Shown here: piece by piece, positions 6,569-50,436 of the stretch
Layout: every line of letters begins with the position of its first letter
How positions within the stretch are numbered: position 1 is the stretch's first letter
DNA from: a bacterium
GTDB taxonomy: Bacteria > RBG-13-61-14 > DATKZS01
NCBI GenBank assembly: GCA_963674965.2
Contig: CAXXFL010000003.1
Location: 384,001 to 448,000, forward strand
Length of the DNA: 64,000 bases
Direction of reading: 5' to 3'
Program-made: the position numbers and the translations under genes
The notes under the pieces: generated by a model
Database searches by the model: none
The model's input: the letters and a program-made list of their open reading frames with translations, nothing else
What the model was told of the DNA's origin: nothing

Positions 6569-7648
6569 TCACGTCCTTGCGGGATTGAGATTTCTCGCCG
6601 TTTCCATGGTCCGTGAAACCAGATCGGACAGTTCAAGCTCTCCCACTCCCGCCAGGGTGACGGCCACCTTGCCTTGCCACGGGTCGGTCCACTTCGCGGG
6701 AATGTCCCTGTCCGACAGGCCCCAGAGGCCGCCCACCGTGGCGCCGTTACAGTCGGTGTCCCATCCCATGGCCACCACCTCCCCGATGGCGGCGCCAAAG
6801 TCCTCGGGAAAGGAACAAACGCTCCAGACCGAGGCCGCCAGGTTGTTGAGGGTATGGGCGGGGCTCAGGTCCGCGTATTTTTCGATAAGCCTCTCGGCCG
6901 CGTCGTCCTTCCCCGCGAGGGAAAGACCGGTCCTGACCGCCTCCGCCGCGCCCGAGGATGAGGGTATCTCGGAGAGGGCGACCTTGGCCGCTTCCTCCAT
7001 CGAGTCCGTCGCCGGTATGGCCGCGGCCATGGCCGCCACGAAGGCCGCGCCGTGGACCCCGTCGCCCCGGTGGGAAAAGCAGGCGTCGCGCCGCGCCAGG
7101 TCCGCCGCCAGGTGAGGGTCGCCCGGACGGACCCACCCGTACATATCCGCCCTTATCTGCGCCCCGATCCACTCGTTAAAGGGGTTGTCCGAGCACCTTA
7201 TCACGTCGACTCCAGGAGGCATGGCGACGAAGACCTCGTCCCCCACCATGGAAAGCAGCGTCCGGTAGGCCTCCTTCTCCGCCGTGAAGACCTGGGCCGC
7301 GGGCAGCGTCTTGAGCCAGGTCCGGCCCACCTTGCCCGCGTCGAGATCCAGCCCGTGCTCCTCCAGCATCAGCAGGGCCAGCACCGTATAGTTAATATCG
7401 TCGTCCGGCTCGAAGCGCTCGATATGACCCTTGCACGTTTTCACGCCCAAAAGGTTGACCAAAGGATCGTCGCCCGCCGGAACGTAATCGCGAAGAGGCA
7501 GGGCCCCCACTTTCTCCAGATACTCGAGCAAGGCCCCCCGCCCCTTCAGCATGGATAAAAGCTCGACCGGCTTGCCCAAAAGACAGCCGCTCACCCGACC
7601 TTGCCAGGCCCCCAGAATCCGCCTCTCCTCGACCTCAAGCGCGACCAT
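6569..7648 (-). CDS. ADP-ribosylglycohydrolase family protein
   Basis: DDDINYT, NEWIGAQIRAD and GWDTDCNGATVG motifs. Confidence 0.88.
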   Translation of the reverse strand: MVALEVEERRILGAWQGRVSGCLLGKPVELLSMLKGRGALLEYLEKVGALPLRDYVPAGDDPLVNLLGVKTCKGHIERFEPDDDINYTVLALLMLEEHGLDLDAGKVGRTWLKTLPAAQVFTAEKEAYRTLLSMVGDEVFVAMPPGVDVIRCSDNPFNEWIGAQIRADMYGWVRPGDPHLAADLARRDACFSHRGDGVHGAAFVAAMAAAIPATDSMEEAAKVALSEIPSSSGAAEAVRTGLSLAGKDDAAERLIEKYADLSPAHTLNNLAASVWSVCSFPEDFGAAIGEVVAMGWDTDCNGATVGGLWGLSDRDIPAKWTDPWQGKVAVTLAGVGELELSDLVSRTMETARNLNPART

Positions 7649-7987
7649 GCCCTCCTCCCTTCAGCGCCCGCGAAAAACGAGCGTCAAGCGCATTATACCA
7701 ACTCAGGCGCGCCTCTCATATATTAAGAACAAGAAATCCGGACGCGCCCGAAACCGCCCCTACTCAAGCATAGGCCAGGGGCAAGTTTATTTTTTGTCTA
7801 TCCTGCTTCTTGGCCTAATTCTATTTTCAGTCCCACCGGCCATTTACCGCCAGGACGGAATCGCCGATCATCGTATCTCTCTCGCTTGGGAGGATTTTCC
7901 TTGGGTCGCCGATTATTGTTATACTCCTCGTATGCAGAATAAATTAAAGAAGGTTTTCTATAATATTCTTTGCCCGGACGAACGGAT

Positions 7988-8923
7988 ATGAAAAGAGTAT
8001 TAGCCTTATGTCTCCTATCTCTTATTTCAATGTCCGCCTGCTCCGGGCCGAAAAAGAATTATGACGCTTATTATGACTTTCTTTCGGTGGAGGCCGAGGA
8101 GAAAAGGTTGGCCGCGCTGGGGGTCGTTTTCACCGAGGAGGGGGACGCCGCCGACGGGTATATGCCCTATTTGAACGGCCAGGCCCAAATAACGCAGATG
8201 AACTGGTTTGCCAATTATTATGGCGACGCGGAAAAACAGGCCGTCGCCGTTAACCTGGCAACCGAGGACCTTGATATTCTTGTGCAGGAAAGCCGGAAAA
8301 AGGAATGCAATATATGGGGAAAGAACTTCTTCCCCAATCAGTCCAAGACCCACTTTCAAGATTCCCCTGGGCCTTCATCAGAATTCCGCCGCCTTATTGC
8401 TTTTCTAATGACCAGAGGAGAGTACCTTTTTAACAATGGAGAATATGAAAAGGGAAAAGAGCAATTTTTCGCCGTCTATAGAATTTTGCATCACTTTGAA
8501 AAGGAGCCCTCTTACTACTATTTTCAATATGGATTTGAGACGAAAATATTCTATTCTGAACGATTTATCCGTCTTCTGGAGCAGTTCGGATTAATAAGAG
8601 AAGCCGAGCTATGGAAAAAATACTTGAAGACCTCTTATAGAAGAGTTCCCTTTTTCAATGAAATCTTTCAGGAATCCGCCTCTTTTGACGAGGATGAATT
8701 GTTTCTATTAGTGGAAAATGAAGATTTTCCAAAAGCGATCAAGCTCCAAATTCTAACCTATCGATATTACGGTCTGTATTCTAAAGCCGACTATTACCGG
8801 TGCTCCGCCATCGGTCCACCAGGTTACGTGAAGGAGGCCATGGAGGCTTTCGCCAAACAAAGCGAGTTGAACGAAATGTTCATTCAACAACTTAAGGCCC
8901 ATGAAGTGGAACACCCCTGGTGA
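7988..8923 (+). CDS. Hypothetical lipoprotein, low GC (probably acquired)
   Basis: MKRVLALCLLSLISMSAC lipobox-like signal; AT-rich codon usage compared with neighbours. Confidence 0.7.
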   Translation: MKRVLALCLLSLISMSACSGPKKNYDAYYDFLSVEAEEKRLAALGVVFTEEGDAADGYMPYLNGQAQITQMNWFANYYGDAEKQAVAVNLATEDLDILVQESRKKECNIWGKNFFPNQSKTHFQDSPGPSSEFRRLIAFLMTRGEYLFNNGEYEKGKEQFFAVYRILHHFEKEPSYYYFQYGFETKIFYSERFIRLLEQFGLIREAELWKKYLKTSYRRVPFFNEIFQESASFDEDELFLLVENEDFPKAIKLQILTYRYYGLYSKADYYRCSAIGPPGYVKEAMEAFAKQSELNEMFIQQLKAHEVEHPW

Positions 8924-16175: not shown

Positions 16176-17243
16176 ATGCCCGACATAACCGACCGGACCA
16201 AGAAAGTAAGGGAAGGAGAGGAACTGGACCTCGCGGCCGTGGAGAAGTTCCTCACCGACAACGTGCCCGGGCTGTCGGGAAAGCTCGAGATCGAGCAGTT
16301 TCCCTCCGGCCATTCCAACCTGACCTATCTGGCCCGCATGGGGGAAAGGGACATGGTGCTCCGCCGTCCTCCCTTCGGCTCGAAGGTGAAGACGGCCCAC
16401 GACATGGGCCGCGAGTACAAGGTCCTCTCGGCCCTGCACCCCGTTTATTCCTGCGCTCCCCGGCCCCTGGCCTTTTGTGAGGACGAGTCGATTATCGGGT
16501 CCAGGTTCTACGTGATGGAAAGGATCAAGGGGGTGATACTCAGAAAGGAGCTTCCCAAGGGCCTGGACTTCACACCCGAGATAGCCGGCAGGCTCTCGGA
16601 GTCCTTCATCAAGAACCTCGCCGTCATGCACGCCATCGACTACGAGGCCGCCGGCCTGGGCGACCTGGGCAAGCCCGAGGGATACCTTAACCGCCAGGTG
16701 GAGGGATGGGCCAAAAGGTACGCGGGATCCCAGACGGACGAGATCAAGGAGATAGACGACACCGTGGACTGGCTGCGCGAGCGCCTGCCCGCCTCTCCCG
16801 CGCCCACCCTGGTGCATAACGACTACAAGTACGACAACATCATCCTCGACGCGAACGACGTAACCCGGATCATCGGGGTCCTCGACTGGGAGATGTCCAC
16901 CATCGGCGACCCCCTCACCGATCTGGGCGCCGCCCTGGGCTACTGGGTCCAGGACGACGACCCGCCCATGCACAAGATGAACGCCTTCGGACCCACCTAC
17001 GCCAAGGGCTCCTATACAAGACGCCAACTGGCGGACAGGTACGCCGAGCTGACCGGACGCGACGTGTCCAACGTCCACTACTACGTGGTCTTCGCCTCCT
17101 TCAAGCTCCTGGTCATCATCCAGCAGATATACTATCGGTACCACCAGGGTCTCACCCAGGACGAAAGGTTCGCCGGACTCGTCAACCTGGTCAAGCTCCT
17201 CGCCCAAACCGGGGTCGAGCTGATCGAAAGGAACGAGATATAA
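16176..17243 (+). CDS. APH-family phosphotransferase (ACAD10/11 kinase- or LvaA-like)
   Basis: QFPSGHSNLTY, AHDMGREY, LVHNDYKYDN, VLDWEM. Confidence 0.92.
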   Translation: MPDITDRTKKVREGEELDLAAVEKFLTDNVPGLSGKLEIEQFPSGHSNLTYLARMGERDMVLRRPPFGSKVKTAHDMGREYKVLSALHPVYSCAPRPLAFCEDESIIGSRFYVMERIKGVILRKELPKGLDFTPEIAGRLSESFIKNLAVMHAIDYEAAGLGDLGKPEGYLNRQVEGWAKRYAGSQTDEIKEIDDTVDWLRERLPASPAPTLVHNDYKYDNIILDANDVTRIIGVLDWEMSTIGDPLTDLGAALGYWVQDDDPPMHKMNAFGPTYAKGSYTRRQLADRYAELTGRDVSNVHYYVVFASFKLLVIIQQIYYRYHQGLTQDERFAGLVNLVKLLAQTGVELIERNEI

Positions 17244-17443
17244 TCTATATGCAACTTCTTATATGTTGGCACAAAGAGGTGACAGAAATTATTTGACGGC
17301 GAAGGTAGCAAGAATGGACGTGATAGAAGATATTAGAAATAATCCATTATTAAGTGAAGTCCATTCTCGTCAAAGAAAGAAGTTGAAAGTTTTTTTCAAG
17401 GATCTTGCCGGTTGCCCACATGAGCATTACCTCGCTCTAAATA

Positions 17444-19207
17444 GTTCCAGTTGCGTAACTAGAAAAAGCCAATAAAAACAATGTGCTGTAAGCATTTTTC
17501 GCTTCCCTTTTTGGTCTTGATATGATACAATAACTCCTTGAAAAATCAAGGATTGACTTGCCGGGATGCTGTGAAGGGGGCGAAAAATGCGACCGAAAAT
17601 TAAAATGCAAATGACCATTGAAGACCACGAATTTTTGAAAGCGGGCCATCTTTTCAAACAAGACACTGAGCTTGAGAAGATGAGCATAGCGCTCGACGAG
17701 GCCAAGGAAATTCTGGAAGCTGTTGCCGATGATCTCCAAAGCGGACTCAAGGAGACCGGCGCCGAGGGGATGAGCGTCGAGCAGGTCCTTAGGAGCGCGG
17801 TCATCTATCAACTCAAGTGTTATTCCTACCGGGAACTCGGCGACCGCCTCGGTTCCGATTACAATTTCCGCAAGTTCACCAGGTTCTTCGGGCGGGACAT
17901 TCCCCATTTCAGCAGCCTGGAGCGGGCGATAAAACGCATCCGCCCCGAGACCTGGGAGCGGATCAACGAAATGCTCGTGGCCCTGGCCATTAAAAAAAAA
18001 GTAGAAGACGGCGAGGCGGTCCGCGCTGACACCGCGGTGGCCGAGGCCAACATCCACTATCCGACCGACGCTTCGCTTCTTTTTGACAGCATCCGTGTAT
18101 TGGACCGGTTGATGAAAGGAGCGCGGAAGGAGCTGCCGGGTCTCGGGTTCGAATATCATGACCGGACTCGGCGGGCCAAGAAGCGCGCTTACCAGATCGC
18201 CATGGGCAAAGGCAAAGGGATCGAGAAGAAACGGGCGGTCTGGTACCGGGACCTTCTCAAGGTTTCGGCGGAAATCTTGGCCATGGCCCGCTCGGCGCGG
18301 GAGGCGCTGGACGAGGCCCTTAAAGGCGGAGAGCTTTATTTCAGCGATGCGGGCCTGGCAACCATGATCAAGAGCGAACTCGATCATTACCTGCCGCTTT
18401 CTGAGCAGTGCGTCGAGCAGTGCGAGCGGCGGGTTATAAAAGGCGAGAAGGTTCCCGCGCAAGAGAAGGTGGTTTCCGTTTTCGAGCCGCACGTTGATAT
18501 CATCCGGAGAGGCAAGACCATGAGCCCGACCGAGTTCGGTCACAAGGTGATGGCGGCGACGGGAAGGTCGGGGATTGTGCTTCAATATAAAGTGTGCGAG
18601 GGCAACCCTTCCGACGCCGACCTTTTCGAGGACATTTTGCAAAAACACGTCCGCCTGTTCGGCAAGGCTCCACGCGAGTTTACCGGCGACCGCCGCTTCT
18701 ATCATGAGGACAATGAGAAGCTTGCGACCGAAGGTCCTTATTATATCGAGCGCCTGGCCATTCCCAAGCCCGGCAAAAGGAGTTCGGAGCGGATCGAGCA
18801 CGAGCGTCAGCGCTGGTTCAAGAAGCTTCTTCGCTTCCGGGCCGGGATCGAGGGCGGCCTTTCCGCCCTTCTTCGCGGCTTCGGTCTGAGCCGATGCCTG
18901 TGGAGAGGTTTCGAGAGCTTCAAGTCCTGGGTGGGTCTTTCGTTCTTTGCCTGGAACCTTCGAAAACTCGCGCTGCTGACTTAGCCGCCGCCGGGCGCGC
19001 CCCTGTGGGGGCAATGAAAAACGGAAATGAAAAACAGCAAAAGGAGAGGTGTTTTTTGAAAGGATAGAAAAGGGCCGGCTCAGGCATTCAACTCGCCTGA
19101 AAGCGTTAAAATCTTTTCCGTCCTTTATAGACGCCCTGAAAATCTGCATGTCCATATCCTCTCCGCACCGCATAATGAAAGCCATTAAGCAGTTGTGCAA
19201 CAGAAAC
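17444..19207 (+). mobile_element. Insertion sequence, ISNCY (ISDol1-like) family, copy 1, 1764 bp, intact
   Basis: Imperfect terminal IRs GTTCCAGTTGCGTAACT / AGTTGTGCAACAGAAAC (13/17 match). TAAATA direct repeats at 17438-17443 and 19208-19213. Single transposase ORF. Confidence 0.93.
17587..18984 (+). CDS. DDE transposase, ISNCY/IS5-like, 465 aa
   Basis: RADTAVAEANIHYPTDASLL, EKVVSVFEPH, TEFGHKV, GDRRFY, RAGIEGGLS. Confidence 0.93.
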   Translation: MRPKIKMQMTIEDHEFLKAGHLFKQDTELEKMSIALDEAKEILEAVADDLQSGLKETGAEGMSVEQVLRSAVIYQLKCYSYRELGDRLGSDYNFRKFTRFFGRDIPHFSSLERAIKRIRPETWERINEMLVALAIKKKVEDGEAVRADTAVAEANIHYPTDASLLFDSIRVLDRLMKGARKELPGLGFEYHDRTRRAKKRAYQIAMGKGKGIEKKRAVWYRDLLKVSAEILAMARSAREALDEALKGGELYFSDAGLATMIKSELDHYLPLSEQCVEQCERRVIKGEKVPAQEKVVSVFEPHVDIIRRGKTMSPTEFGHKVMAATGRSGIVLQYKVCEGNPSDADLFEDILQKHVRLFGKAPREFTGDRRFYHEDNEKLATEGPYYIERLAIPKPGKRSSERIEHERQRWFKKLLRFRAGIEGGLSALLRGFGLSRCLWRGFESFKSWVGLSFFAWNLRKLALLT

Positions 19208-20503
19208 TAAATAAATATATAGAACACAGGCCTGAATGCTTTTACTCAGAAGATATTTTTCACAAATTTCTATACTGGCTAAATAAAAGAGATAATAATT
19301 CACGAGGGCCTCTACAAGAGTATTTTAAAGAGTTCTCTACAGAATTAAATCAGGCATTCCATCACTTAAATGAGGTAAATCGATATGACTGGCATGATGG
19401 CGTCTTGAAATTAGATGAATATGAAAAAATCCGATTTATCGATCAAAAAATACACCCCGCATACCTCCGACTAGTAGAAGCGGTTCTTGCTCCTTTCCTT
19501 CATGTAGTGGCACATTTTTATAGATTTGATCGTGGGAAAGGCACACAAGGATTGGACTTATACAATATTATGGATAACGTGAAAAAAACCGAAATTTCTG
19601 ATGCCGCAGCGCCCTATCTTCATAAAGTTCGGAATGGAATAGGCCACGGGAAGATAACTTACTTACAGAATGAAATACTCTATAAAGATAGAAAAGGAAA
19701 TAGTGAGAAATATAATGATTCAGAAATAATCAGAACATTTGATAACCTTCTTGATACATGTAATTCCATCGCGTTGGCATTATGGATATTTTTTCTTTCA
19801 AAACAATCAGATTGCTATGCTTTGCCGCGACAATTGCTACTGGAAGAGCTTAGGCAGGAAACTAAAACACCGTGGTGGGAGGTCGTTGGTTGCATACCTT
19901 CCGAAAAATCTAGGCAACATCAATTAAATGTATATGTGAAAAACAAAACGCGAGATTATGATAAAGTTCGATATAGTGCCTTTCAAACGGGACTTTTGGC
20001 TGAACTGTTCTCATCTGGTTATGAAAGATACTTTATTTCTATTCTTTCTGATTATTCCTTGCCCGGCTGGGCTGCTTTCAATGGTGACAAGCTGAAGGAA
20101 TTAAGGCTTCATGAAAATACGCGTTTTGAAGACTACAAATGTGTTTTAGAGAATAATGACGTCTATTTTTACCCTCGTGTGAAGGCACCAAAACTGTTTC
20201 ACCATTTAAATAGTTCCAGTTGCGTAACTAGAAAAAGCCAATAAAAACAATGTGCTGTAAGCATTTTTCGCTTCCCTTTTTGGTCTTGATATGATACAAT
20301 AACTCCTTGAAAAATCAAGGATTGACTTGCCGGGATGCTGTGAAGGGGGCGAAAAATGCGACCGAAAATTAAAATGCAAATGACCATTGAAGACCACGAA
20401 TTTTTGAAAGCGGGCCATCTTTTCAAACAAGACACTGAGCTTGAGAAGATGAGCATAGCGCTCCGGAATGTGTCAAGCAAAATGAGACACGCCTTTCCTG
20501 AAT

Positions 20504-21520
20504 TTAGTGTGGCAAACTGTTTATTTCCTCCGGTTTCGCCGGTGGGTTGATCCACGCTTTGCCGGGCAACTCCGGCGCCGTCGGCGGTCTTTTCACGAAG
20601 CGCTCCGGTTTTTTTTCATAGGCGTGGTCGAGCGTTTTTTGCCTGGCGGCCACGATCTCGCTCGCCATTCCGTAATGGACCATCTCGGGCGTCATCAGGC
20701 CGATCCCGGTGTGCCGATGCTCGCGGTTGTACCAATCGAAAAACTTCACGCAAAAGGCCCTGGCGTCCTCGATGGAGCCGAACCGGCTCGGGAACTCGGG
20801 CCGGTACTTCATGGTCTTGAACTGGCTTTCCGAGTAGGGGTTGTCGTCGGACACGTGGGGCCGCGAGTGGCTCTTGGTCACGCCCAGGTCGGCCATCAAG
20901 AAGGCCACCGGCTTTGATTTCATCGAACTCCCCCGGTCGGCGTGGATGGTGAGTTGTCCCGGCTCGATCCCCTGTTTTCGGATGCTGTCCCCGATCAGGC
21001 GGCGGGCCAGCTCCGCGCTCTCGCGTCCGGCGATCATCCATCCCACCACGCAGCGGCTGAAGATGTCCATGATCACGTAGAGTTGGTAGCAGGTCCATTT
21101 GGCCGGTCCCTTGAGCTTGGTGACGTCCCAGGACCAGACCTGGTTGGGGGCCTCGGCCAGCAACTCGGGTTTTTTGTATCGGGGACGCCGAAGCTGGTTG
21201 CGCCGCTCCCTGACTTCCTTTTCCGAGTCGAGGACGCGGTACATGGTGCGGACCGAGCACAGCCATGTCCCCTCGTCCAGGAGCGTTGCCCAGACCTCGC
21301 GGGGGGCCTTGTCGGCAAAGCGCTCGGAGTGGAGTCCGTCCAGCACCCGGCGCCGCTCGTCCTCGCTCAACGACCTTGCCGGCTTGGCCGCGCGCCTCGG
21401 CGGCGGAGGCCCGAAGGGAATTTTAGCGCGACGATTAAACGTTGCTCGCGACAGGCCCAGGGCCTCGCAGGCGGCCTTGGCGCCGACCCGGGGAGCGGCC
21501 GTGCTTGCCGATTCCATCAT
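20504..21520 (-). CDS. IS3-family transposase OrfB (integrase core)
   Basis: PNQVWSWDVTKL, DIFSRCVVGW, IHADRGS, DNPYSESQFKTMKY, YNREHRHTGI. Confidence 0.93.
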   Translation of the reverse strand: MMESASTAAPRVGAKAACEALGLSRATFNRRAKIPFGPPPPRRAAKPARSLSEDERRRVLDGLHSERFADKAPREVWATLLDEGTWLCSVRTMYRVLDSEKEVRERRNQLRRPRYKKPELLAEAPNQVWSWDVTKLKGPAKWTCYQLYVIMDIFSRCVVGWMIAGRESAELARRLIGDSIRKQGIEPGQLTIHADRGSSMKSKPVAFLMADLGVTKSHSRPHVSDDNPYSESQFKTMKYRPEFPSRFGSIEDARAFCVKFFDWYNREHRHTGIGLMTPEMVHYGMASEIVAARQKTLDHAYEKKPERFVKRPPTAPELPGKAWINPPAKPEEINSLPH

Positions 21521-22056
21521 TCGCTCTCTTCGCCGGGCGGCTTGGCCAGGGGTATCCCCAGCAGATCGGCAACTTTTTTTTGGAAGTCGATTATCATCTC
21601 GGCCTGTTCGAGCCGCTTTTGGAGCTTCCCGTTCTCGCGCTCGAGGCGGGCCACTTCATCGGCCAGCGGGTTTTTGGCCTTGGGCTTGCGGCCCCGCTTT
21701 ACGGGCGAAAGCGCTTTCAAGGCCCCCTCGTCCCGCTGCTTGCGCCAGGCCGTCAGGTGCGACGAATAAAGGCCCTCCCGGCGCAGCAGGGCGCCGACCT
21801 CGCCATGCCCCGAGCAGGCGTCGGCCTTCCCGAGGATTGCGAGCTTGTAAGCCGCGGTGAAGCGCCGCCGGGCGGGCTTTTCCGGGACCTCCGGCTCGGG
21901 AAGAATGATCGGCGCCCCCACCCGCTCGGGCCGCTTGGCAGGAGTGTCCTCCGGCTCGGCCGTCCCGGTTGGGGAGACTCCGGTCGCCCTACGGGCTCCC
22001 TCCGTCTCCCCAACAATCCCTGCCTTCTTCCTGTCTTCATCCATCTCTCTATACAT
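21517..22056 (-). CDS. IS3-family transposase OrfA (HTH plus coiled coil)
   Basis: RRRFTAAYKLAIL, GALLRREGLYSSHLTAWR; ATGA overlap with orfB. Confidence 0.9.
   Translation of the reverse strand: MYREMDEDRKKAGIVGETEGARRATGVSPTGTAEPEDTPAKRPERVGAPIILPEPEVPEKPARRRFTAAYKLAILGKADACSGHGEVGALLRREGLYSSHLTAWRKQRDEGALKALSPVKRGRKPKAKNPLADEVARLERENGKLQKRLEQAEMIIDFQKKVADLLGIPLAKPPGEESE
21573..21581 (-). promoter_or_regulatory. Candidate programmed -1 frameshift site (A8G) joining OrfA to OrfB
   Basis: Minus strand TTC CAA AAA AAA GTT; the -1 frame stays open from here to the orfB ATG. Confidence 0.7.
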
Positions 22057-24240
22057 CCTAATACCTCCCCCGCCCTACAGTAATTTAACATAGGGGAAGT
22101 GTCTCATCTACGTTGGCACAGAGGGCTCGACGAGGCCAAGGAAATTCTGGAAGCTGTTGCCGATGATCTCCAAAGCGGACTCAAGGAGACCGGCGCCGAG
22201 GGGATGAGCGTCGAGCAGGTCCTTAGGAGCGCGGTCATCTATCAACTCAAGTGTTATTCCTACCGGGAACTCGGCGACCGCCTCGGTTCCGATTACAATT
22301 TCCGCAAGTTCACCAGGTTCTTCGGGCGGGACATTCCCCATTTCAGCAGCCTGGAGCGGGCGATAAAACGCATCCGCCCCGAGACCTGGGAGCGGATCAA
22401 CGAAATGCTCGTGGCCCTGGCCATTAAAAAAAAAGTAGAAGACGGCGAGGCGGTCCGCGCTGACACCGCGGTGGCCGAGGCCAACATCCACTATCCGACC
22501 GACGCTTCGCTTCTTTTTGACAGCATCCGTGTATTGGACCGGTTGATGAAAGGAGCGCGGAAGGAGCTGCCGGGTCTCGGGTTCGAATATCATGACCGGA
22601 CTCGGCGGGCCAAGAAGCGCGCTTACCAGATCGCCATGGGCAAAGGCAAAGGGATCGAGAAGAAACGGGCGGTCTGGTACCGGGACCTTCTCAAGGTTTC
22701 GGCGGAAATCTTGGCCATGGCCCGCTCGGCGCGGGAGGCGCTGGACGAGGCCCTTAAAGGCGGAGAGCTTTATTTCAGCGATGCGGGCCTGGCAACCATG
22801 ATCAAGAGCGAACTCGATCATTACCTGCCGCTTTCTGAGCAGTGCGTCGAGCAGTGCGAGCGGCGGGTTATAAAAGGCGAGAAGGTTCCCGCGCAAGAGA
22901 AGGTGGTTTCCGTTTTCGAGCCGCACGTTGATATCATCCGGAGAGGCAAGACCATGAGCCCGACCGAGTTCGGTCACAAGGTGATGGCGGCGACGGGAAG
23001 GTCGGGGATTGTGCTTCAATATAAAGTGTGCGAGGGCAACCCTTCCGACGCCGACCTTTTCGAGGACATTTTGCAAAAACACGTCCGCCTGTTCGGCAAG
23101 GCTCCACGCGAGTTTACCGGCGACCGCCGCTTCTATCATGAGGACAATGAGAAGCTTGCGACCGAAGGTCCTTATTATATCGAGCGCCTGGCCATTCCCA
23201 AGCCCGGCAAAAGGAGTTCGGAGCGGATCGAGCACGAGCGTCAGCGCTGGTTCAAGAAGCTTCTTCGCTTCCGGGCCGGGATCGAGGGCGGCCTTTCCGC
23301 CCTTCTTCGCGGCTTCGGTCTGAGCCGATGCCTGTGGAGAGGTTTCGAGAGCTTCAAGTCCTGGGTGGGTCTTTCGTTCTTTGCCTGGAACCTTCGAAAA
23401 CTCGCGCTGCTGACTTAGCCGCCGCCGGGCGCGCCCCTGTGGGGGCAATGAAAAACGGAAATGAAAAACAGCAAAAGGAGAGGTGTTTTTTGAAAGGATA
23501 GAAAAGGGCCGGCTCAGGCATTCAACTCGCCTGAAAGCGTTAAAATCTTTTCCGTCCTTTATGGACGCCCTGAAAATCTGCATGTCCATATCCTCTCCGC
23601 ACCGCATAATGAAAGCCATTAAGCAGTTGTGCAACAGAAACTAAATAATAGGTATATGGCATTTAGACTGTTCTTGCCAATCGCGAGAGAAGATTTCAAG
23701 ACTCAACTTAATCTTCCCAATATCTATGTCCGAAATTCCGTAATTCACCGCAATGGTTGGCGTTGCGTACTAAATGCAAGTGTATTTTACAACGGCCCAG
23801 ATGACCAAGAAGCAATAAGAAACTCGTGTAGAAGAATCATTCATCAGCCCCTTTTGAACGCGAGATGCCGTTTATCTATTACAGATATATCTCGATATCT
23901 TCCCCTAGGCTATGCTCGCGTGGCGGTATTTCGGAAAAATTATAGAAGACGCCGATTATTATGCTTTGGTCTTGGTGACGATTTGATTTGTACTGTACAG
24001 GTAAAAAATATCTCACGCATTTCCAGCCCAGATATTATTGGATCAACAATCGAAAAATATGGAAAGTATAGAATCGCATGGAACCGGGCTTGGTTACAAA
24101 ATAAGGAAACAGAAGTCTCAGGATCGTGAAAATATCGAGATAAAAGATATAAGTTTAAAGGCACAAAACCCGACTCTGACTGAACATTAAGGGAGAACGC
24201 CTAAAGCTAAATGAACTATATATCTATCTCTTTTATATGA

Positions 24241-25458
24241 TCAGGATTCCCCTCTCCTGTACTTCTTCTGGGCCTCCTTCATGGTCTTGGAGAGTTCCTC
24301 GATGTCCACGGGTTTTTGCAGGTAGGCGAAGGCGCCCAGGTCGAGGGCGGTCTCGCGGTCCTTTTCCGAGCCGTGGCCGGTAAGCACGATGACCTCGATG
24401 TGGGGCTTGTCCTTTTTCAGGCGGCGCAGGACCTCCATGCCGTTGATGCCGGGCATGTTGAGGTCGAGGACGATAACGTCCGGCTCGTCGTCCTCGACCA
24501 GGTCCAGGGCCTGCTGGCCGTCGTAGACCACGGTCGAGCCCACGTCGCGGAGCTGGAGGCGCTCGGAGAGGGTCTGCACGAACTCCCGTTCGTCGTCCAC
24601 CAGGAGGACCTTGCTGGGGACCTCGGGCTCGAAGCGGCGGTAGATGTCGGCCTTGTAAAAGCCGGGACCGACCTTGGTCTCGACCGACTCGACGCCCGAA
24701 ACGCCGCCCGCTATCTTTTTCAGTTCATCCTCCAGGCGGGCCAGCATGAGGGTGTTCTTGTTGATGGTCAGGACCGTGGCGCCCTTGTCGGCGGCCACCA
24801 TCACGTTGTGCCCCGCGTTCACCAGGGCCTCCTCCACCTTGGCCATCAGCTTGAAGTCGGCCGCGGCCGCCCGGGCCGTGTCGTTATAGGCCAGGGCCGA
24901 AGACCCCGCGCTCGAGAGTATCAGCTCGACCGCCTTCTCCACCGAGGTCTTGTCCGTGGGAATAAGAACGTCGTAGAGATCCGCGTCCCAGGGCTCCTTG
25001 CCGAAAAGATAATCCGTCCACAGCCCCTTGCTCTCGTCGTCCTTGTGGATGAGCCTGGTGGCCTCCTTTTGCGAGAGCCCGGCCGCCTCGGCCGCCGTCT
25101 TGCAGCGGTGGTTGAACTCCGCTATAACGCACACGCCGAGGGCGTGAGTCACGCTCCTCGGGACCAGGTGGGAGCAATAGCCGCTGACCACTATCCCGTC
25201 GCCGTCGGCCAGGTCGGCCATGACCATCCGCAGGTGGCTCACGAATCGTTCCTTCTCGTGCGTGTACTTGTTCCACACCGAGGGGGACTGGGTCATGGCG
25301 CGCAGGAGCTTCTTTTCCGCCACTCCGTAGCGCTCGCTCGCCTTCTTCACGATCTCGGCGTCGTCCAGCGCGACCTTGTAGCCCAGCTTCTCGGCCGCCA
25401 GGTCGCGGACCTTTCTACCGTTGCAGTGAATCCCGTGGAATATCTTCAGTATGGCCAT
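24241..25458 (-). CDS. Response regulator with N-terminal cytidylate-kinase-like and BON-like regions and a C-terminal receiver domain
   Basis: C-terminal VLLVDDE..PDVIVLDLNMPGING..VIVLTGHG..AFAYLQKP. N-terminal LAAEKLGY..DADLYDVLI. Start at ATG 25458. Confidence 0.85.
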   Translation of the reverse strand: MAILKIFHGIHCNGRKVRDLAAEKLGYKVALDDAEIVKKASERYGVAEKKLLRAMTQSPSVWNKYTHEKERFVSHLRMVMADLADGDGIVVSGYCSHLVPRSVTHALGVCVIAEFNHRCKTAAEAAGLSQKEATRLIHKDDESKGLWTDYLFGKEPWDADLYDVLIPTDKTSVEKAVELILSSAGSSALAYNDTARAAAADFKLMAKVEEALVNAGHNVMVAADKGATVLTINKNTLMLARLEDELKKIAGGVSGVESVETKVGPGFYKADIYRRFEPEVPSKVLLVDDEREFVQTLSERLQLRDVGSTVVYDGQQALDLVEDDEPDVIVLDLNMPGINGMEVLRRLKKDKPHIEVIVLTGHGSEKDRETALDLGAFAYLQKPVDIEELSKTMKEAQKKYRRGES

Positions 25459-25459
25459 T

Positions 25460-27616
25460 TTATGCTCCCGTCGTCTCTTTGACTTCATCGAGGGGACAGA
25501 CCGTGACGAGCGGACATTCCTTCTCGTCGGAACCCTTGTGGGCCTTGTCGAATATGGCCGCGATGGCGGCCGCCTGGGTGGGGAAGATGTGGTCATCCCC
25601 GATCTTCTCGTAAAGGTGGGTCCGCTTCATGAGCAGAAGCACGTCCTCCTTGACGCCGCTGATGGAAAAGTCGTGACCCGCGCTCCTCACGTTGTCCACC
25701 ACCAGCGACATGACCTCCTCACCGGACGCGTCCATGGCGTTGATGCCGTTGGCCACGAGAAGGATGTGACGAAGCTCCGGCATGGCGCTCACGCGGTCGA
25801 TGATCAGGTCCTCGAAGTAGCTGGCGCTGGCGAAGAACAGCGGGCCGTCGAACCGGATCACGGCTATGTGTTTGCACTCTCTCAACGACCAGTGCTCGGC
25901 GTCCCTCAGCGAGCAGTCGGGATGGAGCGAAAGGTGGGCCACTTTGGGCCTCATGCTGATATAGAGGAAATAGCCCAGCGACAGGAGAACGCCCACGATG
26001 ATGCCCTTGTCCAGATGGGGCGCCCAGGCCAGCGTGCCAAGAAAGGAAACCACCGAGATGATCCCGTCCACTTTGTGAGTTTTATAGGCGTGAATAAAGC
26101 CGCTCACGTTCACCAGGCCGATGACGGCCATCATGATGACGGCGGCCAGGGTGGCCTGGGGAAGGAAATAAAGGAGCGGCGTGAAGAAAATAAGCACGAT
26201 CACCACCATGCAACTCGTGACCACGCTGGATATGCCGGTAAGCGCCCCCGCCTGGAGGTTGACCGCCGACCTCGAGAAGGACCCGGACGTGGGATAGGAC
26301 TGGCCCACCGAGCCCAGGATGTTGGCGATGCCCTGTCCGATCAGCTCCTGGTTGGGATCGAGGTATTGTCCGGTCTTGGCCGCCATGGCCTTGGCGATGG
26401 ATATGGCCTCCATGAATCCGAGCAGCGAGATGATGATGGCCGTGGGAAGAAGCAAAAGGAAGTCGGATAGATTTATCCTGGGCACGGCCAGCTTGGGAAG
26501 ACCCTTGGGAATGGTACCCACGATGGCGCCGCCGCCGATCATGTAGAGGTTGTCCGGGTCGATCTCCTTGGTTCCCACCTTGATCCTCCACACGCGTCCG
26601 TCCGTCTGGGCGCCCTCGGGCGCCTCGCCCTTTTTATAGAAGCGCATGGTCCCGTCCGGGCCCGGGACCCCGTCCAGGAAGATAAGGCGCATCTTTTCCC
26701 TGGCCACGTGGCTCTTTTGCTCGAGGTGCTCGATCTCGAGGTTGATCTTCTCGACGCGCTGGGAGAGTTCGAGGTACTCGATGGATTTCTCGCCGCTTTT
26801 CTCCTTGACCTCCAGCAGCTTGGGAGTCAGGGTGGCCCTTTCCTCGCCCAGGGCCGCCGTCTCGGCCACGGTATCGTCGAAGTCCTTGATGAGCTGGCGT
26901 ATCTCATCGACCTCGACGCTCGAGAGGGTGGCCTTTGTATCGTGGTTGAAGCCGGCCAGCCAGGAAATAAGAGTGGTCACTATAACGGCCACCAGCACGT
27001 TGGGTATCTTGGGATTGATTTTTCTCAGGACGTACATGATGGCGAAGGCCAGGACGCCCATGGCCAGGGTGGGCCAGTGGGTGTACTGGAAGGCCGACTC
27101 GACCACGCCAATGATGGTCTCGTAATGGTGCTCCGCGCTGTCCACGTAAACGCCGAAGAGCTTCGAGAGCTGGGAGGTGGCGATGATGATGGCGCCCGCG
27201 TTGGTAAAGCCGTTGACCACCGGGTGGGAGAGGAAGTTGACCACCAGGCCCAGCCTGAGCACGCCCAGGGCCAACTGGAAAACTCCCACCGTAAAGGCCA
27301 GGGCGATGGTATAGGCTATGTAGCCCGCGCTGCCGGCCGTGGCCAGGGGCCCGAGGGAGGCGGCGGTCATAAGCGACACGATGGCCACCGGGCCGGTGGC
27401 GAGCTGCCTGCTCGATCCGAACAGGGCCGCGAACATGGGCGGCAGGAAAGAGGCGTAAAGCCCGTAATAAGCGGGCAGACCCGCCAACTGGGCGTAGGCC
27501 ATGGACTGGGGAATAAGGACCAGCGCCACGCTCAAGCCGGCCAGGAAATCGACTCGGAAAGAGGAAAGGCCGTAGCCCTTGAACCACGTGAGGAAAGGAA
27601 ATACGCGTTTAATCAT
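25460..27616 (-). CDS. SulP/SLC26 anion transporter with STAS domain
   Basis: DFLAGLSVALVLIPQSMAYA, GSSRQLATGP, NQELIGQG, GSFSRSAVN, RFDGPLFF. Confidence 0.95.
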   Translation of the reverse strand: MIKRVFPFLTWFKGYGLSSFRVDFLAGLSVALVLIPQSMAYAQLAGLPAYYGLYASFLPPMFAALFGSSRQLATGPVAIVSLMTAASLGPLATAGSAGYIAYTIALAFTVGVFQLALGVLRLGLVVNFLSHPVVNGFTNAGAIIIATSQLSKLFGVYVDSAEHHYETIIGVVESAFQYTHWPTLAMGVLAFAIMYVLRKINPKIPNVLVAVIVTTLISWLAGFNHDTKATLSSVEVDEIRQLIKDFDDTVAETAALGEERATLTPKLLEVKEKSGEKSIEYLELSQRVEKINLEIEHLEQKSHVAREKMRLIFLDGVPGPDGTMRFYKKGEAPEGAQTDGRVWRIKVGTKEIDPDNLYMIGGGAIVGTIPKGLPKLAVPRINLSDFLLLLPTAIIISLLGFMEAISIAKAMAAKTGQYLDPNQELIGQGIANILGSVGQSYPTSGSFSRSAVNLQAGALTGISSVVTSCMVVIVLIFFTPLLYFLPQATLAAVIMMAVIGLVNVSGFIHAYKTHKVDGIISVVSFLGTLAWAPHLDKGIIVGVLLSLGYFLYISMRPKVAHLSLHPDCSLRDAEHWSLRECKHIAVIRFDGPLFFASASYFEDLIIDRVSAMPELRHILLVANGINAMDASGEEVMSLVVDNVRSAGHDFSISGVKEDVLLLMKRTHLYEKIGDDHIFPTQAAAIAAIFDKAHKGSDEKECPLVTVCPLDEVKETTGA

Positions 27617-30281: not shown

Positions 30282-31691
30282 TCAGCCCAATATCCCCACG
30301 GCTCGCATGGCCGACTCGACGATGGCGTTTTTGGCCGGGAAAAAGGTCTGCCAAGGTTGGGAACTGTAGCTGAACTCGGCCAGGTCCTCGGCGGTCATGC
30401 GATGTTGCGCGGCGAGGGTCACCAGGTCAACGCGCTCCGCCACCGCGTCCGTGCCCACGATCTGTCCTCCCAGTATCCGGTTGCTCCCCTTTTCAATGAC
30501 CAGCTTGACCTTGACGTGGCCGGCGCCGGGCATCATGGGAAACCGCGTGGCCGACTCCCCGTGGGAGACGTAGGTATCGAAGCCTCTCGACCGCGCCAGG
30601 CTCTCGGTAAAACCCGTTCCCGCGACGCGCAGCTGGCCAACCACAGTGGCCGCCCCGTTGAAGAACCCCTTGTATCGGGCCGGCTTGCCCACCATGTCGA
30701 GAGCAGCTATCTTGGCCATGGGAACGGCGTTCGTGGCCAGCTTGCCGCCCAGAGGCTCGCCGTCAATGCCCGAGATATACTGAACGCAGTCGCCGGCCGC
30801 CCAGACCTTGTCCGCGCTGGTCCTCATGCGGTCGTCCACGATGATGCCGTCCTTGCCCGACTCTATCCCCGCCGCGCGGAAAACGTCTATGTCCGGACGC
30901 ATTCCAACCGCGACGGTGGCGAAATCATGCCCCTCATTGAGCTCGATCATGGTCCCATCCGTAAGCTCGACTTGGGCGACGGCTTTATTCCCGTGAAAAG
31001 CCATAAGTCCCTTGCCCAGATGAAGATGGACCCCAGCTTTTTTAAGTTCCCCGATAATCGGCTCCGCCATGTCGCGGTCGATCAGTTGCGGCAGCGGATA
31101 CTCGGCTATGTCCACGAGGTGGACCTCGATGCCGCGGTTAACGTAGGCCATGGCCTGCTCGACGCCGATGGCCCCGGCCCCGATCACCACCGCGCGGGCG
31201 CAGTTCCCCCCGCATTCGGTCTTTTTGGTGACGTCGCAATCGCGGCCCTGAATGGCGGCGATAACGGCCTCGGCGTCCTTGCCGGTCTTGACCGTGTAAA
31301 CGTTGGCCAGGTCCACGCCGGGAACGGGAGGCTTGACGGGCACGGCCCCCGCGGCTATCAAAAGCTTGTCGAATCCGACCCTCCGGCCGCTCTCGAAAAA
31401 GCACTCCCTTGCGTTCAGATTGAGCTTGACCGCTTTTTCCCTGATGAGCTCGGCGCCAACGCCCGTTACCAACTCGTCGGTCTTAAAACACTTGTTCAGC
31501 GGAAACAAGCCCTCGATGGCGTAGGGAAGCGCGCAGTAGATAATCGAATAATCCTCGGGCCGAGCCACGGCTATGGTGGCGTCGGGATCATGGGTTTTGA
31601 TCAGGCGAGTCGCCTGAATCCCGGCGGGACCGCCGCCGACGATCAGTACGTCAACCTCGCTCGCCGCGTCTTTAACTTCATTTTCTCGCAT
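30282..31691 (-). CDS. FAD-dependent pyridine nucleotide-disulfide oxidoreductase (NADH oxidase/CoA-disulfide reductase-like)
   Basis: IVGGGPAG, YCALPY (redox Cys), VIGAGAIG, WAAGDC, RILGGQIVG. Start set at ATG 31691 with SD. Confidence 0.88.
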   Translation of the reverse strand: MRENEVKDAASEVDVLIVGGGPAGIQATRLIKTHDPDATIAVARPEDYSIIYCALPYAIEGLFPLNKCFKTDELVTGVGAELIREKAVKLNLNARECFFESGRRVGFDKLLIAAGAVPVKPPVPGVDLANVYTVKTGKDAEAVIAAIQGRDCDVTKKTECGGNCARAVVIGAGAIGVEQAMAYVNRGIEVHLVDIAEYPLPQLIDRDMAEPIIGELKKAGVHLHLGKGLMAFHGNKAVAQVELTDGTMIELNEGHDFATVAVGMRPDIDVFRAAGIESGKDGIIVDDRMRTSADKVWAAGDCVQYISGIDGEPLGGKLATNAVPMAKIAALDMVGKPARYKGFFNGAATVVGQLRVAGTGFTESLARSRGFDTYVSHGESATRFPMMPGAGHVKVKLVIEKGSNRILGGQIVGTDAVAERVDLVTLAAQHRMTAEDLAEFSYSSQPWQTFFPAKNAIVESAMRAVGILG

Positions 31692-31850
31692 AACATTACC
31701 CCCTTCCGGTTCTTGTTTTTTAATGAGATCAATTTTTGTGCCTGGAGTAACCAAAAAAAGATCTATATTATCCAAGTAACTTGTTTATAAGGACTATCAG
31801 CTGGAATATCTTCGATCGTTAATGAGGGGCGGATATATATTAAAGTAACG

Positions 31851-31873
31851 GTTAACGTTATGATAACGTTAAC
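31851..31873. promoter_or_regulatory. Palindrome with 11-bp arms, candidate operator upstream of the oxidoreductase pair
   Basis: GTTAACGTTAT-G-ATAACGTTAAC in AT-rich intergenic DNA. Confidence 0.55.
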
Positions 31874-31998
31874 TTGATAAAGTCTTGGTTTCGTAAAGTG
31901 GATATAAACGGGCTGGTTTGAAAGTCGAATTTCTCCATGGGCGCTCCGTCTAAAGATATACGGCGTCCCGCGGCAAGGGCTTTCTCAATGTTTTGCCC

Positions 31999-32183
31999 CT
32001 AATTGACGGTCGGATACTCGACGCGTCCGGCTTCAAGGCGAGCGGATACCGCGTCCATAAATTCCGGCCAAGTCGCGAGCGGGTCGCGCTTCACGTCCAG
32101 CGTTCCCCTCATGACTGCTTGCTCGCCTTTACCATGGCCACAATCCCGGCCTTGATAGCCTCGGGGAGGTCGTTCCATTTCCC
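31999..32183 (-). pseudogene. Remnant of integrative-element or phage-like small ORFs
   Basis: GKWNDLPEAIKAGIVAMVKASKQS* overlaps (ATGA) a 37-aa ORF MRGTLDVKRDPLATWPEFMDAVSARLEAGRVEYPTVN*. Confidence 0.4.
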
Positions 32184-32184
32184 G

Positions 32185-32296
32185 AATACACTATATCCGC
32201 TGATATCTGCCCCCATGGATCATAATCAATGCGTTCATATATGTCGCCGTCTGAGTCTGTTACTATGCGAGTCGAGCCAAGATGGTCTGTATGATA
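32185..32296 (-). pseudogene. Rhs core fragment
   Basis: YHTDHLGSTRIVTDSDGDIYERIDYDPWG matches the Rhs-associated core signature. Confidence 0.8.
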
Positions 32297-32875
32297 CCTG
32301 CTGGCCTCTGCCACGGCTCCGCTCCAAGCGGCATTAGCTTCAGGAGGACCGTGCTTGAACATACTTTCAGTTATAGAATAAATAAAATTCCAAATATAGA
32401 CGGCTTATTTCTCGTATTTTACGATCAAAGTCTCTGGCATTATTCAAATCTAAAAAAGAAAACAACCCTTAGCGACAGAGAAACTATAACCAACTTCAGA
32501 ATAGTTCAGTTTTTATCGGATAAAAATACCTACCAGATCATTTCAAGATTTGAAGATACTAATTTTATTGACAAAATCAACAATATCGGTAAGTATTTAG
32601 ATGGGGCGAGGAAACCGATACCATTCTATATCTGGTCCGGTGGACTCGATGCTGGTTCCTTGAAGTCAATGGATACCAAGGTCATTTCATTTTCCACGAA
32701 AGGTTTTATCCCCCCGACCGTGACGAGGCCGAGTTTTTATAAAATCGATTGGATATTCAATCCAAGAACCAGTAAGTTAACGGCAACTACCCTGCACTGG
32801 AACATTCACGAGGAGCCTTTGCCAGACGGGAGTGACACGAAAGAAGTTGAGACCATAGTAGATTTGACGAAATGA
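32282..32875 (+). CDS. Low-GC hypothetical ORF, probably 5'-truncated
   Basis: Long AT-rich open frame from about 32355. The N-terminal part overlaps the Rhs remnant and has no SD. Confidence 0.45.
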   Translation: MVCMIPAGLCHGSAPSGISFRRTVLEHTFSYRINKIPNIDGLFLVFYDQSLWHYSNLKKKTTLSDRETITNFRIVQFLSDKNTYQIISRFEDTNFIDKINNIGKYLDGARKPIPFYIWSGGLDAGSLKSMDTKVISFSTKGFIPPTVTRPSFYKIDWIFNPRTSKLTATTLHWNIHEEPLPDGSDTKEVETIVDLTK

Positions 32876-33034
32876 TCGAGTAACGAATTACCCAAGATTG
32901 CGAAGAGCAAATTCGATGTTCCTACTTTCTCCTCCGGTATATACACGCCTGACATTTAGTGCTATAAAAACGCGGTGAGGAAATAACGAGCGATACGCGG
33001 CGGCCGGCCGCGAAACGACAAGGGAGGGAGCGTT

Positions 33035-49806: not shown

Positions 49807-50436
49807 CTGAGCCATGACCGGGCCAATCGCTCAACTAATTTATCTTTCTTTTCTCGACGCGAGCGCAAAATTAGTAAATATCTATTATTTCTTTTAAATG
49901 GAATATGATTATACCATGGATAATATTGAATGGCCCCCGCTTTATAAGCGGATAAATTGAGTCAATTAACAAAAAATTATCTTGACAAGAATTTTGATTT
50001 GTTCTATTAATAGCCGCAACAGGGAGATAATTGTGGGGGTCAACCTGAAAAGGACCGAGTAGTTTCGGTGGAAGGAAAAAGATTATCTATATTTTTCCGT
50101 AATCGCATTATTACCGACCTTTTTTCAATTCATTAATATTTTTAGCTTACGGTTAAGCAGCCGCTTTTATTAGCGGCGCCGCTTGCCCTGATGGGACTTT
50201 CCCTATTCGTGGCTTGGCTGGAATTGTATCCAGCCAAGCGCTTACCCCCCTTTTGTCATTCAATATTTACCAAACAAACCGATCGATTTTTTATTGAGAG
50301 ATATTACGCGCTTTGTTCAATTCAATAAAGCGCCGTTAAGGAGGTGGCAAGCGTCAGGTATCAAGGTATCCATTAGAAAAAGGTAAAGGCGTCACGTAGT
50401 ACAACTTTCACTTATCCCGTATTAAAGGAGGAAAAA

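Follow-up and report, generated by a model that had tools for sequence, protein, structure and literature searches.

A split gene from a conserved, unannotated protein family with a likely HEPN-type domain, disrupted by nested insertion sequences

The window analysed here is a stretch of 64,000 nucleotides (nt) from a bacterium (GTDB lineage Bacteria; RBG-13-61-14; DATKZS01), covering positions 384,001 to 448,000 of the forward strand of contig CAXXFL010000003.1 (NCBI GenBank assembly GCA_963674965.2), and coordinates refer to it unless another locus is named. Between genes for an APH-family phosphotransferase (16176-17243, + strand) and a response regulator (24241-25596, - strand) lies a region of 6.9 kb, in which AT-rich coding pieces alternate with GC-richer mobile DNA. 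This region is occupied by one horizontally acquired gene for a protein of about 536 amino acids (aa), now dead and cut into three pieces by insertion sequences (ISs). The pieces, all on the + strand, are: (i) piece 1 (17314-17443), which corresponds to residues ~1-43 of the protein family described below and whose frame is open through the junction, (ii) piece 2 (19214-20212, frame from 19216), which corresponds to family residues ~44-376, includes the start of an alpha/beta domain and carries the motifs DWHD (19387-19398), YLRLVE (19462-19479), RNGIGH (19630-19647) and FDNLLDTCN (19738-19764), and (iii) piece 3 (23648-24129, frame from 23650, stop codon 24127-24129), which encodes the C-terminal portion of this domain, with the motifs IHRNGW (23743-23760), YRRRRL (23941-23958), SPDIIG (24025-24042) and YRIAWN (24067-24084). 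The GC content of the gene is 0.376, compared with 0.602 in the rest of the window.

Joining of the intervals 17263-17443, 19214-20212 and 23648-24129, by which every IS is taken out together with one TAAATA, yields 1662 nt, i.e. 553 codons and a stop codon, with zero internal stops. Pieces 2 and 3 open in the middle of a codon, and stops appear if they are translated alone from 19214 and 23648; read from 19216 and 23650, both are open. In whichever way the TAAATA hexamer found at each insertion site is divided between the IS end and the target duplication, the joined sequence is either the same or changed by a multiple of three, so the frame argument stands. A single gene cut by three ISs had been proposed in the initial annotation of the window, and this is borne out by the open join and by 102 full-length homologs, with which the pieces are colinear and which span both junctions without a gap. 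Moreover, the codon rebuilt at the first junction encodes Lys, the family consensus for that column.

The homologs begin opposite the second ATG (17314), which the initial annotation had also listed, and this ATG is preceded by GAAGG at a distance of 9-13 nt; a start at the upstream in-frame ATG (17263) would lengthen the product by 17 aa. The second ATG is thus the likely start and the product would have 536 aa. The restored protein shares 55% identity with its best full-length relative and retains all 18 invariant residues of the family and 71 of its 75 near-invariant ones, which, as far as can be read from the sequence, fits a recent inactivation. A public protein collection holds the middle piece as a stand-alone open reading frame (ORF) of 349 aa (P0004; 19195-20244), extended into IS sequence at both ends. 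Fragments alone are visible to gene callers at this locus, and in silico removal of the ISs restores a gene that can be tested.

The first insertion is an intact ISNCY-family element of 1764 bp (17444-19207, + strand) with imperfect terminal inverted repeats and a transposase gene at 17587-18984. It is flanked by a TAAATA target-site duplication, whose left copy (17438-17443) is native gene sequence and whose right copy (19208-19213) was duplicated during insertion. The second insertion (20213-23641, + strand) is the same element, with TAAATA at 20207-20212 and 23642-23647, and its transposase gene is broken by a nested IS3-family element of 1661 bp (20464-22124, - strand) flanked by GCTC (20460-20463 and 22125-22128). 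Assignment to the ISNCY family is based on the score of the transposase against the NCBIfam model NF033593 transpos_ISNCY_1 (403.9 bits, cutoff 325; Pfam domains DDE_Tnp_1 and DUF772), the inverted repeats and the 6-bp TAAATA flanks. The nested element shows the orfA/orfB layout of the IS3 family (orfA 21517-22056, orfB 20504-21520, with a 4-nt overlap) and the 4-bp GCTC flanks; its orfB product scores above the cutoff of NF033516 transpos_IS3 (179.6 bits, cutoff 160) and carries the Pfam domain rve, and HTH_Tnp_1 is present in orfA.

The two ISNCY-family copies are nearly identical: BLASTn returned 251 identical nt plus 99.8% identity over 1523 nt, and a base-by-base comparison of the aligned copies found one difference (19129 A versus 23563 G). 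A block of 257 nt is identical at 17438-17694 and 20207-20463, and a second repeat begins at 17685 and 22119; the boundaries of the nested element were set by this comparison of copy 2 with copy 1. The most plausible course of events is that the ISNCY-family element entered the gene twice, independently, at two TAAATA sites and that the IS3-family element landed later within the second copy. Neither element has a further copy in the window according to BLASTn searches with both, and no transposase domain was detected in the 45 other ORFs of the window at E<=1e-10, in agreement with the earlier remark that the rest of the stretch is IS-free. The occurrence of the same hexamer at both ISNCY insertions (two insertions only) suggests a sequence-specific target and not a random 6-bp duplication.

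A search with the middle piece (332 aa) as the query found 114 proteins; 102 of them, of 500-570 aa (about 535 aa), make up the full-length set, all without a name beyond "hypothetical" and none with a precomputed Pfam domain. Y127, E132, Y178, R183, N184, H188, G189, D220, D224 and N227 (numbering follows P0006) are among the residues invariant in 102/102 of these homologs, and R, N, H, G and D are also invariant in 63/63 translations from genomic loci of many phyla, down to 24-35% identity. The R-N-x3-H motif and the upstream Glu, both singled out in the middle piece by the initial annotation, are invariant in both sets. An HMMER search over 1.84 billion cluster representatives gave 577 matches at E<=1e-3, of which 241 reached E<=1e-30, and the best 150 of the 577 were all proteins of ~535 aa or shorter fragments, with no fusion among them. 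The domain alignment, used in a search for short stand-alone relatives, returned 15 matches, of which 14 are fragments of the family and one has an E-value of 0.39. In the ESM Atlas the whole protein matched unnamed hypothetical clusters only, and a comparison of the C-terminal domain with the named clusters gave nothing usable. NCBIfam, searched with the three pieces at E<=1, returned for the family gene a single chance-level row, in which piece 3 was paired with benzoyl-CoA reductase subunit A (E 0.13, 10.9 bits, cutoff 578). This is a conserved, unannotated family of ~535 aa with a single architecture. It is absent from Pfam, NCBIfam and PADLOC, so current defence-annotation pipelines miss it, and its value lies in the family more than in the present locus, whose copy is dead. 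In one Dehalococcoidia locus (L017), a 195-aa ORF (1898-2482 of that locus, - strand) about 7.5 kb from the family gene contains an R-N-x3-H-E-G-G stretch resembling the family motif; it had no Pfam match at E<=1.

AlphaFold2, supplied with the family alignment, gave confident models of a full-length homolog (predicted local distance difference test (pLDDT) 91.5, predicted template modelling score (pTM) 0.90) and of the window's own helical domain (19249-19869; pLDDT 93.0, pTM 0.89). In the full-length model residues 1-262 are helical, with the domain of interest at ~56-262 of the 535-aa protein. E132 is located on a long helix (112-149) that is followed by a 30-residue insert, R183 and N184 belong to a short helix (180-187), and the loop after it opens with H188; the motif helix of the window-domain model (125-133) places the His in the same way. 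D220, D224 and N227 are found on the next long helix (212-239).

According to the available text of Anantharaman et al. (2013, PMC3710099), HEPN domains are defined by an R-x4-6-H motif in which the Arg is directly followed by a polar residue (N, D or H), positioned at the end of a helix and the start of the following loop, by a conserved acidic residue in helix 2, typically within Ex3[K/R], and by frequent inserts between helices 2 and 3. The window protein has RNGIGH, and R183, N184 and H188 are invariant in the family; in the predicted models the motif is located at the helix end and start of the loop, the long helix before it bears the acidic residue, and the insert separates the two helices. 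The model fits these four points with the reservation that the Glu lacks the typical Ex3[K/R] context. Solved HEPN domains have a four-helix up-down fold. A Foldseek search of the domain model against the PDB gave its best superpositions with HepT and other HEPN proteins, namely 7ae6_A (target template modelling (TM) score 0.51), 8xeh_B (0.61) and 2hsb (0.53), at root-mean-square deviations of 5.2-5.6 Å and E-values of 0.6-1.2. Among the matches listed, these three are the only ones whose target TM score exceeds 0.5, all others being <=0.31.

Several results weigh against this assignment. None of the Foldseek matches of the domain model to the PDB reached E<=1e-3, and the full-length model likewise had nothing at this level and no HEPN protein among the matches listed. 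At the profile level, the full-length family profile found nothing among PDB sequences at E<=10, and the domain profile found four chance-level matches (mS23 and P450, E 0.5-0.9), none of them HEPN. The three pieces matched no Pfam family at E<=1, and 88 members of the family gave scattered chance-level Pfam rows, with HEPN_AbiU2 appearing once (1/88) at a sub-threshold E-value of 0.019; there is accordingly no profile match to a known HEPN family, either in Pfam or with the PDB profiles. With respect to the HEPN definition, the context of the conserved Glu in the family is E-A-V-F-x-P and not Ex3[K/R], a three-strand beta-meander unusual for HEPN (191-211 in the model) is inserted after the motif, the helix that follows carries the extra invariant D/D/N residues, and the domain is embedded in a 535-aa protein. 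A homodimer prediction with two copies of residues 1-265 and the alignment scored 0.00 against a mark of 0.42, which weighs neither way on dimerisation. Other proteins appearing in the Foldseek searches of the PDB and BFVD (acetyl-CoA carboxylase central domain, family II pyrophosphatase and phage nucleases) were rejected, as their TM scores were ~0.1-0.2 and none reached E<=1e-3.

It could be argued that the family is real but that its helical domain houses another active or binding site, such as that of a hydrolase or of a nucleotide or ligand sensor, in which case the gene would be non-nuclease accessory cargo of mobile islands. The statistical non-significance of the sequence and structure matches speaks for such a view, as do the beta-meander and the invariant D220, D224 and N227, which fall outside the HEPN definition, and helical bundles can reach TM scores of 0.5-0.6 without homology. 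We nevertheless consider it unlikely, given that the exact R-N-x3-H sits at a helix end, with an acidic residue upstream on a long helix and an insert in between, all as in the available HEPN description, and given that the listed target TM scores above 0.5 belong to HEPN proteins only, with other helical bundles at <=0.31. Judged from the predicted models, the helical half of the protein is likely, though not established, to be a divergent HEPN domain. The HEPN-like label of the initial annotation thus stands as regards motif position, helix order and the ranking of structural matches; significant support from Foldseek, Pfam or the PDB profiles was not obtained.

Two single-protein HEPN anti-phage tRNases offer a comparison. 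The first, DARNA (PD-T7-3; bioRxiv 10.64898/2026.02.22.705581), is, in the available text, also a stand-alone polypeptide (456 aa, compared with about 535 aa here) without an antitoxin partner, but it carries its HEPN domain at the very start of the chain (aa 1-159) and has an all-alpha, Pds5-like C-terminal domain, whereas that of the family is alpha/beta; it is a functional analog, not a shown homolog. The second, ApeA (bioRxiv 10.64898/2026.01.26.701840), is described in the available text as a lone HEPN effector switched on by an infection cue, which is the resemblance to the protein proposed here. A third system, the type VII toxin-antitoxin (TA) pair HepT-MntA, provides the closest superpositions to the helical domain (7ae6_A and 8xeh_B) and has the R-x4-H motif in common with it, but HepT has ~130-150 aa and is encoded next to an MNT antitoxin gene, unlike the ~535-aa family with no conserved neighbour. 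A strict motif search for DUF86/HepT-like genes in 78 loci of the family gave 0 candidates; a loose one gave 34 matches in 32 ORFs, and none of the 4 best was a HEPN protein by Pfam. The HEPN domain of ApeA is C-terminal, and its domain order differs from that of the family. The Pfam model HEPN_Apea matched none of the pieces and none of the 88 members.

The remainder of the protein (residues 267-535 in the model) is an alpha/beta domain of ~270 aa, built of two similar strand-strand-helix-strand-strand units. No recognisable relative of this domain was found by whole-protein Foldseek searches of the PDB and BFVD or among the named clusters of the ESM Atlas, in line with the earlier statement that the C-terminal ~300 aa were not recognised. 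The domain contains several invariant residues and two near-invariant motifs, H-R-N-x-W on a strand (23743-23760) and the basic D-Y-R-R-R-R-L (23941-23958), and these motifs could mark a nucleic-acid-binding surface. A PD-(D/E)XK nuclease fold, to which weak nuclease rows in BFVD and a conserved P-D...E stretch had pointed, was rejected, as the Lys is unconserved and the structural scores do not rise above chance.

The family is sparse but widely spread: among 185,579 species, each represented by one genome, 91 stretches encode a relative of the protein, and 78 of these loci were kept. They belong to Thermodesulfobacteriota, Planctomycetota, Chloroflexota, Gemmatimonadota, Acidobacteriota, Bacteroidota, Proteobacteria and other phyla, as well as to archaea (Methanococcoides, Methanosphaerula and Methanofastidiosum). 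One intact homolog is that of Desulfosarcina cetonica JCM 12296 (L002, 10001-11599). The GC content of the gene is below that of its flanks in 49/53 loci (median -8.6 points). Clustering of 367 neighbours from crude gene calls (within three genes on either side, 72 loci) revealed no conserved partner gene, the largest neighbour cluster comprising 3/72 loci, and in the window no ORF separates the gene from the flanking housekeeping genes. Both this and the low GC content of the gene agree with the earlier view of a stand-alone, acquired gene.

Pfam searches were run on the 251 neighbours within two genes on either side in 70 loci, and the counts given here are raw, with no background rate. Restriction-modification (RM), TA or other defence domains were found in 12/70 loci: a TIR effector, Eco57I (two loci), MmeI, HsdM with Fic, GmrSD, N6_N4 methylases (three loci, one with Mrr), HicB (two loci) and ParE. 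In 5 further loci a transposase or integrase was present, which gives 17/70 in total, and ambiguous AAA_21-type ATPases lie near the gene in 3 more. A DNA methyltransferase or RM gene is the immediate neighbour in 7/70 loci (L035, L060, L072, L061, L047, L039 and L055). In three of these, from unrelated genomes, the neighbour is a type IIG/IIL-like RM gene (of Eco57I type, or an N6_N4 methylase accompanied by Mrr) that immediately precedes the family gene on its own strand, at a distance of 2-29 nt (L035, 11-2959; L060, 226-3225; L072, 8268-9965; positions within each locus), and may be operonically associated with it.

The neighbourhood is suggestive of a role in defence, and several observations stand against such a role. 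The neighbours within two genes are housekeeping or unannotated, with none of the RM, TA or transposase type, in 53/70 loci, and the window gene itself is flanked by fatty-acid-metabolism and transporter genes. No copy was found by tBLASTn in 72,556 plasmids and 50,697 phage records. PADLOC-DB 2.0.0 had no match to the three pieces at E<=1 and gave chance-level rows only for the 88 members (E 0.005-0.17, each in 1-3 members). This release presumably includes a model for PD-T7-3, and the family matches no PADLOC model meaningfully. The proposal that this is a defence gene is consequently supported by context and not by any match to a known system.

Decay of the gene is recurrent in the family. 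Among the 78 loci, the 14 with partial matches were re-examined, and two of these were split by ISs. The gene of a Gemmatimonadota genome (L069, 7672-11020) contains a 1729-bp insertion with an IS1380-family transposase (196.1 bits, cutoff 180), and that of an Eisenbacteria genome (L074, 7119-11308) a 2549-bp IS21-family element (IstB 249.3 bits, cutoff 200; IstA 122.8 bits, under the cutoff of 160). Another member (L054) is frameshifted near residue 271, and three loci (L062, L064 and L068) hold only internal fragments. This fits an accessory, possibly costly gene and equally fits AT-rich foreign DNA, which commonly serves as an IS sink.

Selection against a costly or toxic gene, raised earlier as a reason for the two hits in the window, would mean that both insertions were favoured by selection in this host and were not a matter of target preference. 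The two independent hits within 1.66 kb, in a window without another IS copy, the full set of invariant residues in the otherwise undamaged sequence and the splitting of two other members by unrelated ISs are in line with it. Nevertheless, as an explanation of the IS pattern we hold it to be unlikely. The identical hexamer was duplicated both times, and the restored window of 58,795 bp contains 14 TAAATA/TATTTA sites, 4 of them inside the 1662-bp gene, which makes up 2.8% of the window; a second hit is thus not improbable, and target preference is sufficient without counter-selection. Furthermore, with the gene already inactivated by the first insertion, the second could not have been selected for inactivation. 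Both hits are best explained if the IS prefers an AT-rich hexamer, one that clusters in this AT-rich gene, with relief from a costly gene as a possible additional factor.

The following mechanism is proposed for the intact members of the family. The helical half would be a metal-independent RNase with R183, N184 and H188 as the active site, assisted by E132. The enzyme would be held off by its own C-terminal domain, and such autoinhibition is probable because no partner gene is conserved. The C-terminal domain, with its very basic conserved patch, would serve as a sensor or nucleic-acid binder. A trigger such as phage infection would release the enzyme, cellular RNA would be cut and growth would stop, following the abortive-infection logic of DARNA and ApeA. 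The family is real and uncharacterised and probably consists of stand-alone, HEPN-type effectors, for which we infer a defence role. That the window gene is an acquired, dead effector of this type, working by abortive-infection logic and hit by ISs through target preference, is, on balance, the explanation that we favour, if by a narrow measure. The broader proposal of a new immune-effector family, which combines a divergent HEPN RNase with a new sensor, is spread over bacteria and archaea, often lies downstream of type IIG/IIL RM genes and is repeatedly lost to ISs, is put forward tentatively, as a possibility that falls short of being probable.

A HEPN-type toxin could also serve selfish maintenance or conflict between mobile elements, as a module by which integrative elements enforce addiction or exclusion, and have no part in phage defence. 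Such a role would be in keeping with the transposases or integrases within two genes of 6/70 loci, the TA components (HicB, ParE) beside the gene in 3, the AT-rich islets amid otherwise housekeeping surroundings and the frequent decay (2 IS-split, 1 frameshifted and 3 fragmentary genes among the 14 re-examined loci). We regard it as decidedly improbable, since no antitoxin-like neighbour is conserved (largest cluster 3/72 loci), the searched plasmid and phage records are without copies, and RM genes are the commonest recognisable neighbours. Should the family indeed be an active HEPN-type effector, the few HEPN defence systems that consist of one protein (ApeA, DARNA) would be joined by a new stand-alone architecture, and its sensor domain, unlike anything solved, could detect an infection signal of a new kind.

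Apart from the split gene, the window contains a second low-GC islet (7970-8920; GC content 0.44-0.48) with a 317-aa ORF for which Pfam gave nothing at E<=1e-10. It adjoins an ADP-ribosylglycohydrolase gene (6572-7648) and may be another acquired gene. Two further low-GC stretches (31501-33000 and 50001-50500; GC content 0.42-0.47) overlap ORFs that are also without a Pfam match at this threshold, namely 31993-32334, 32282-32872 and the start of 50437-52281.

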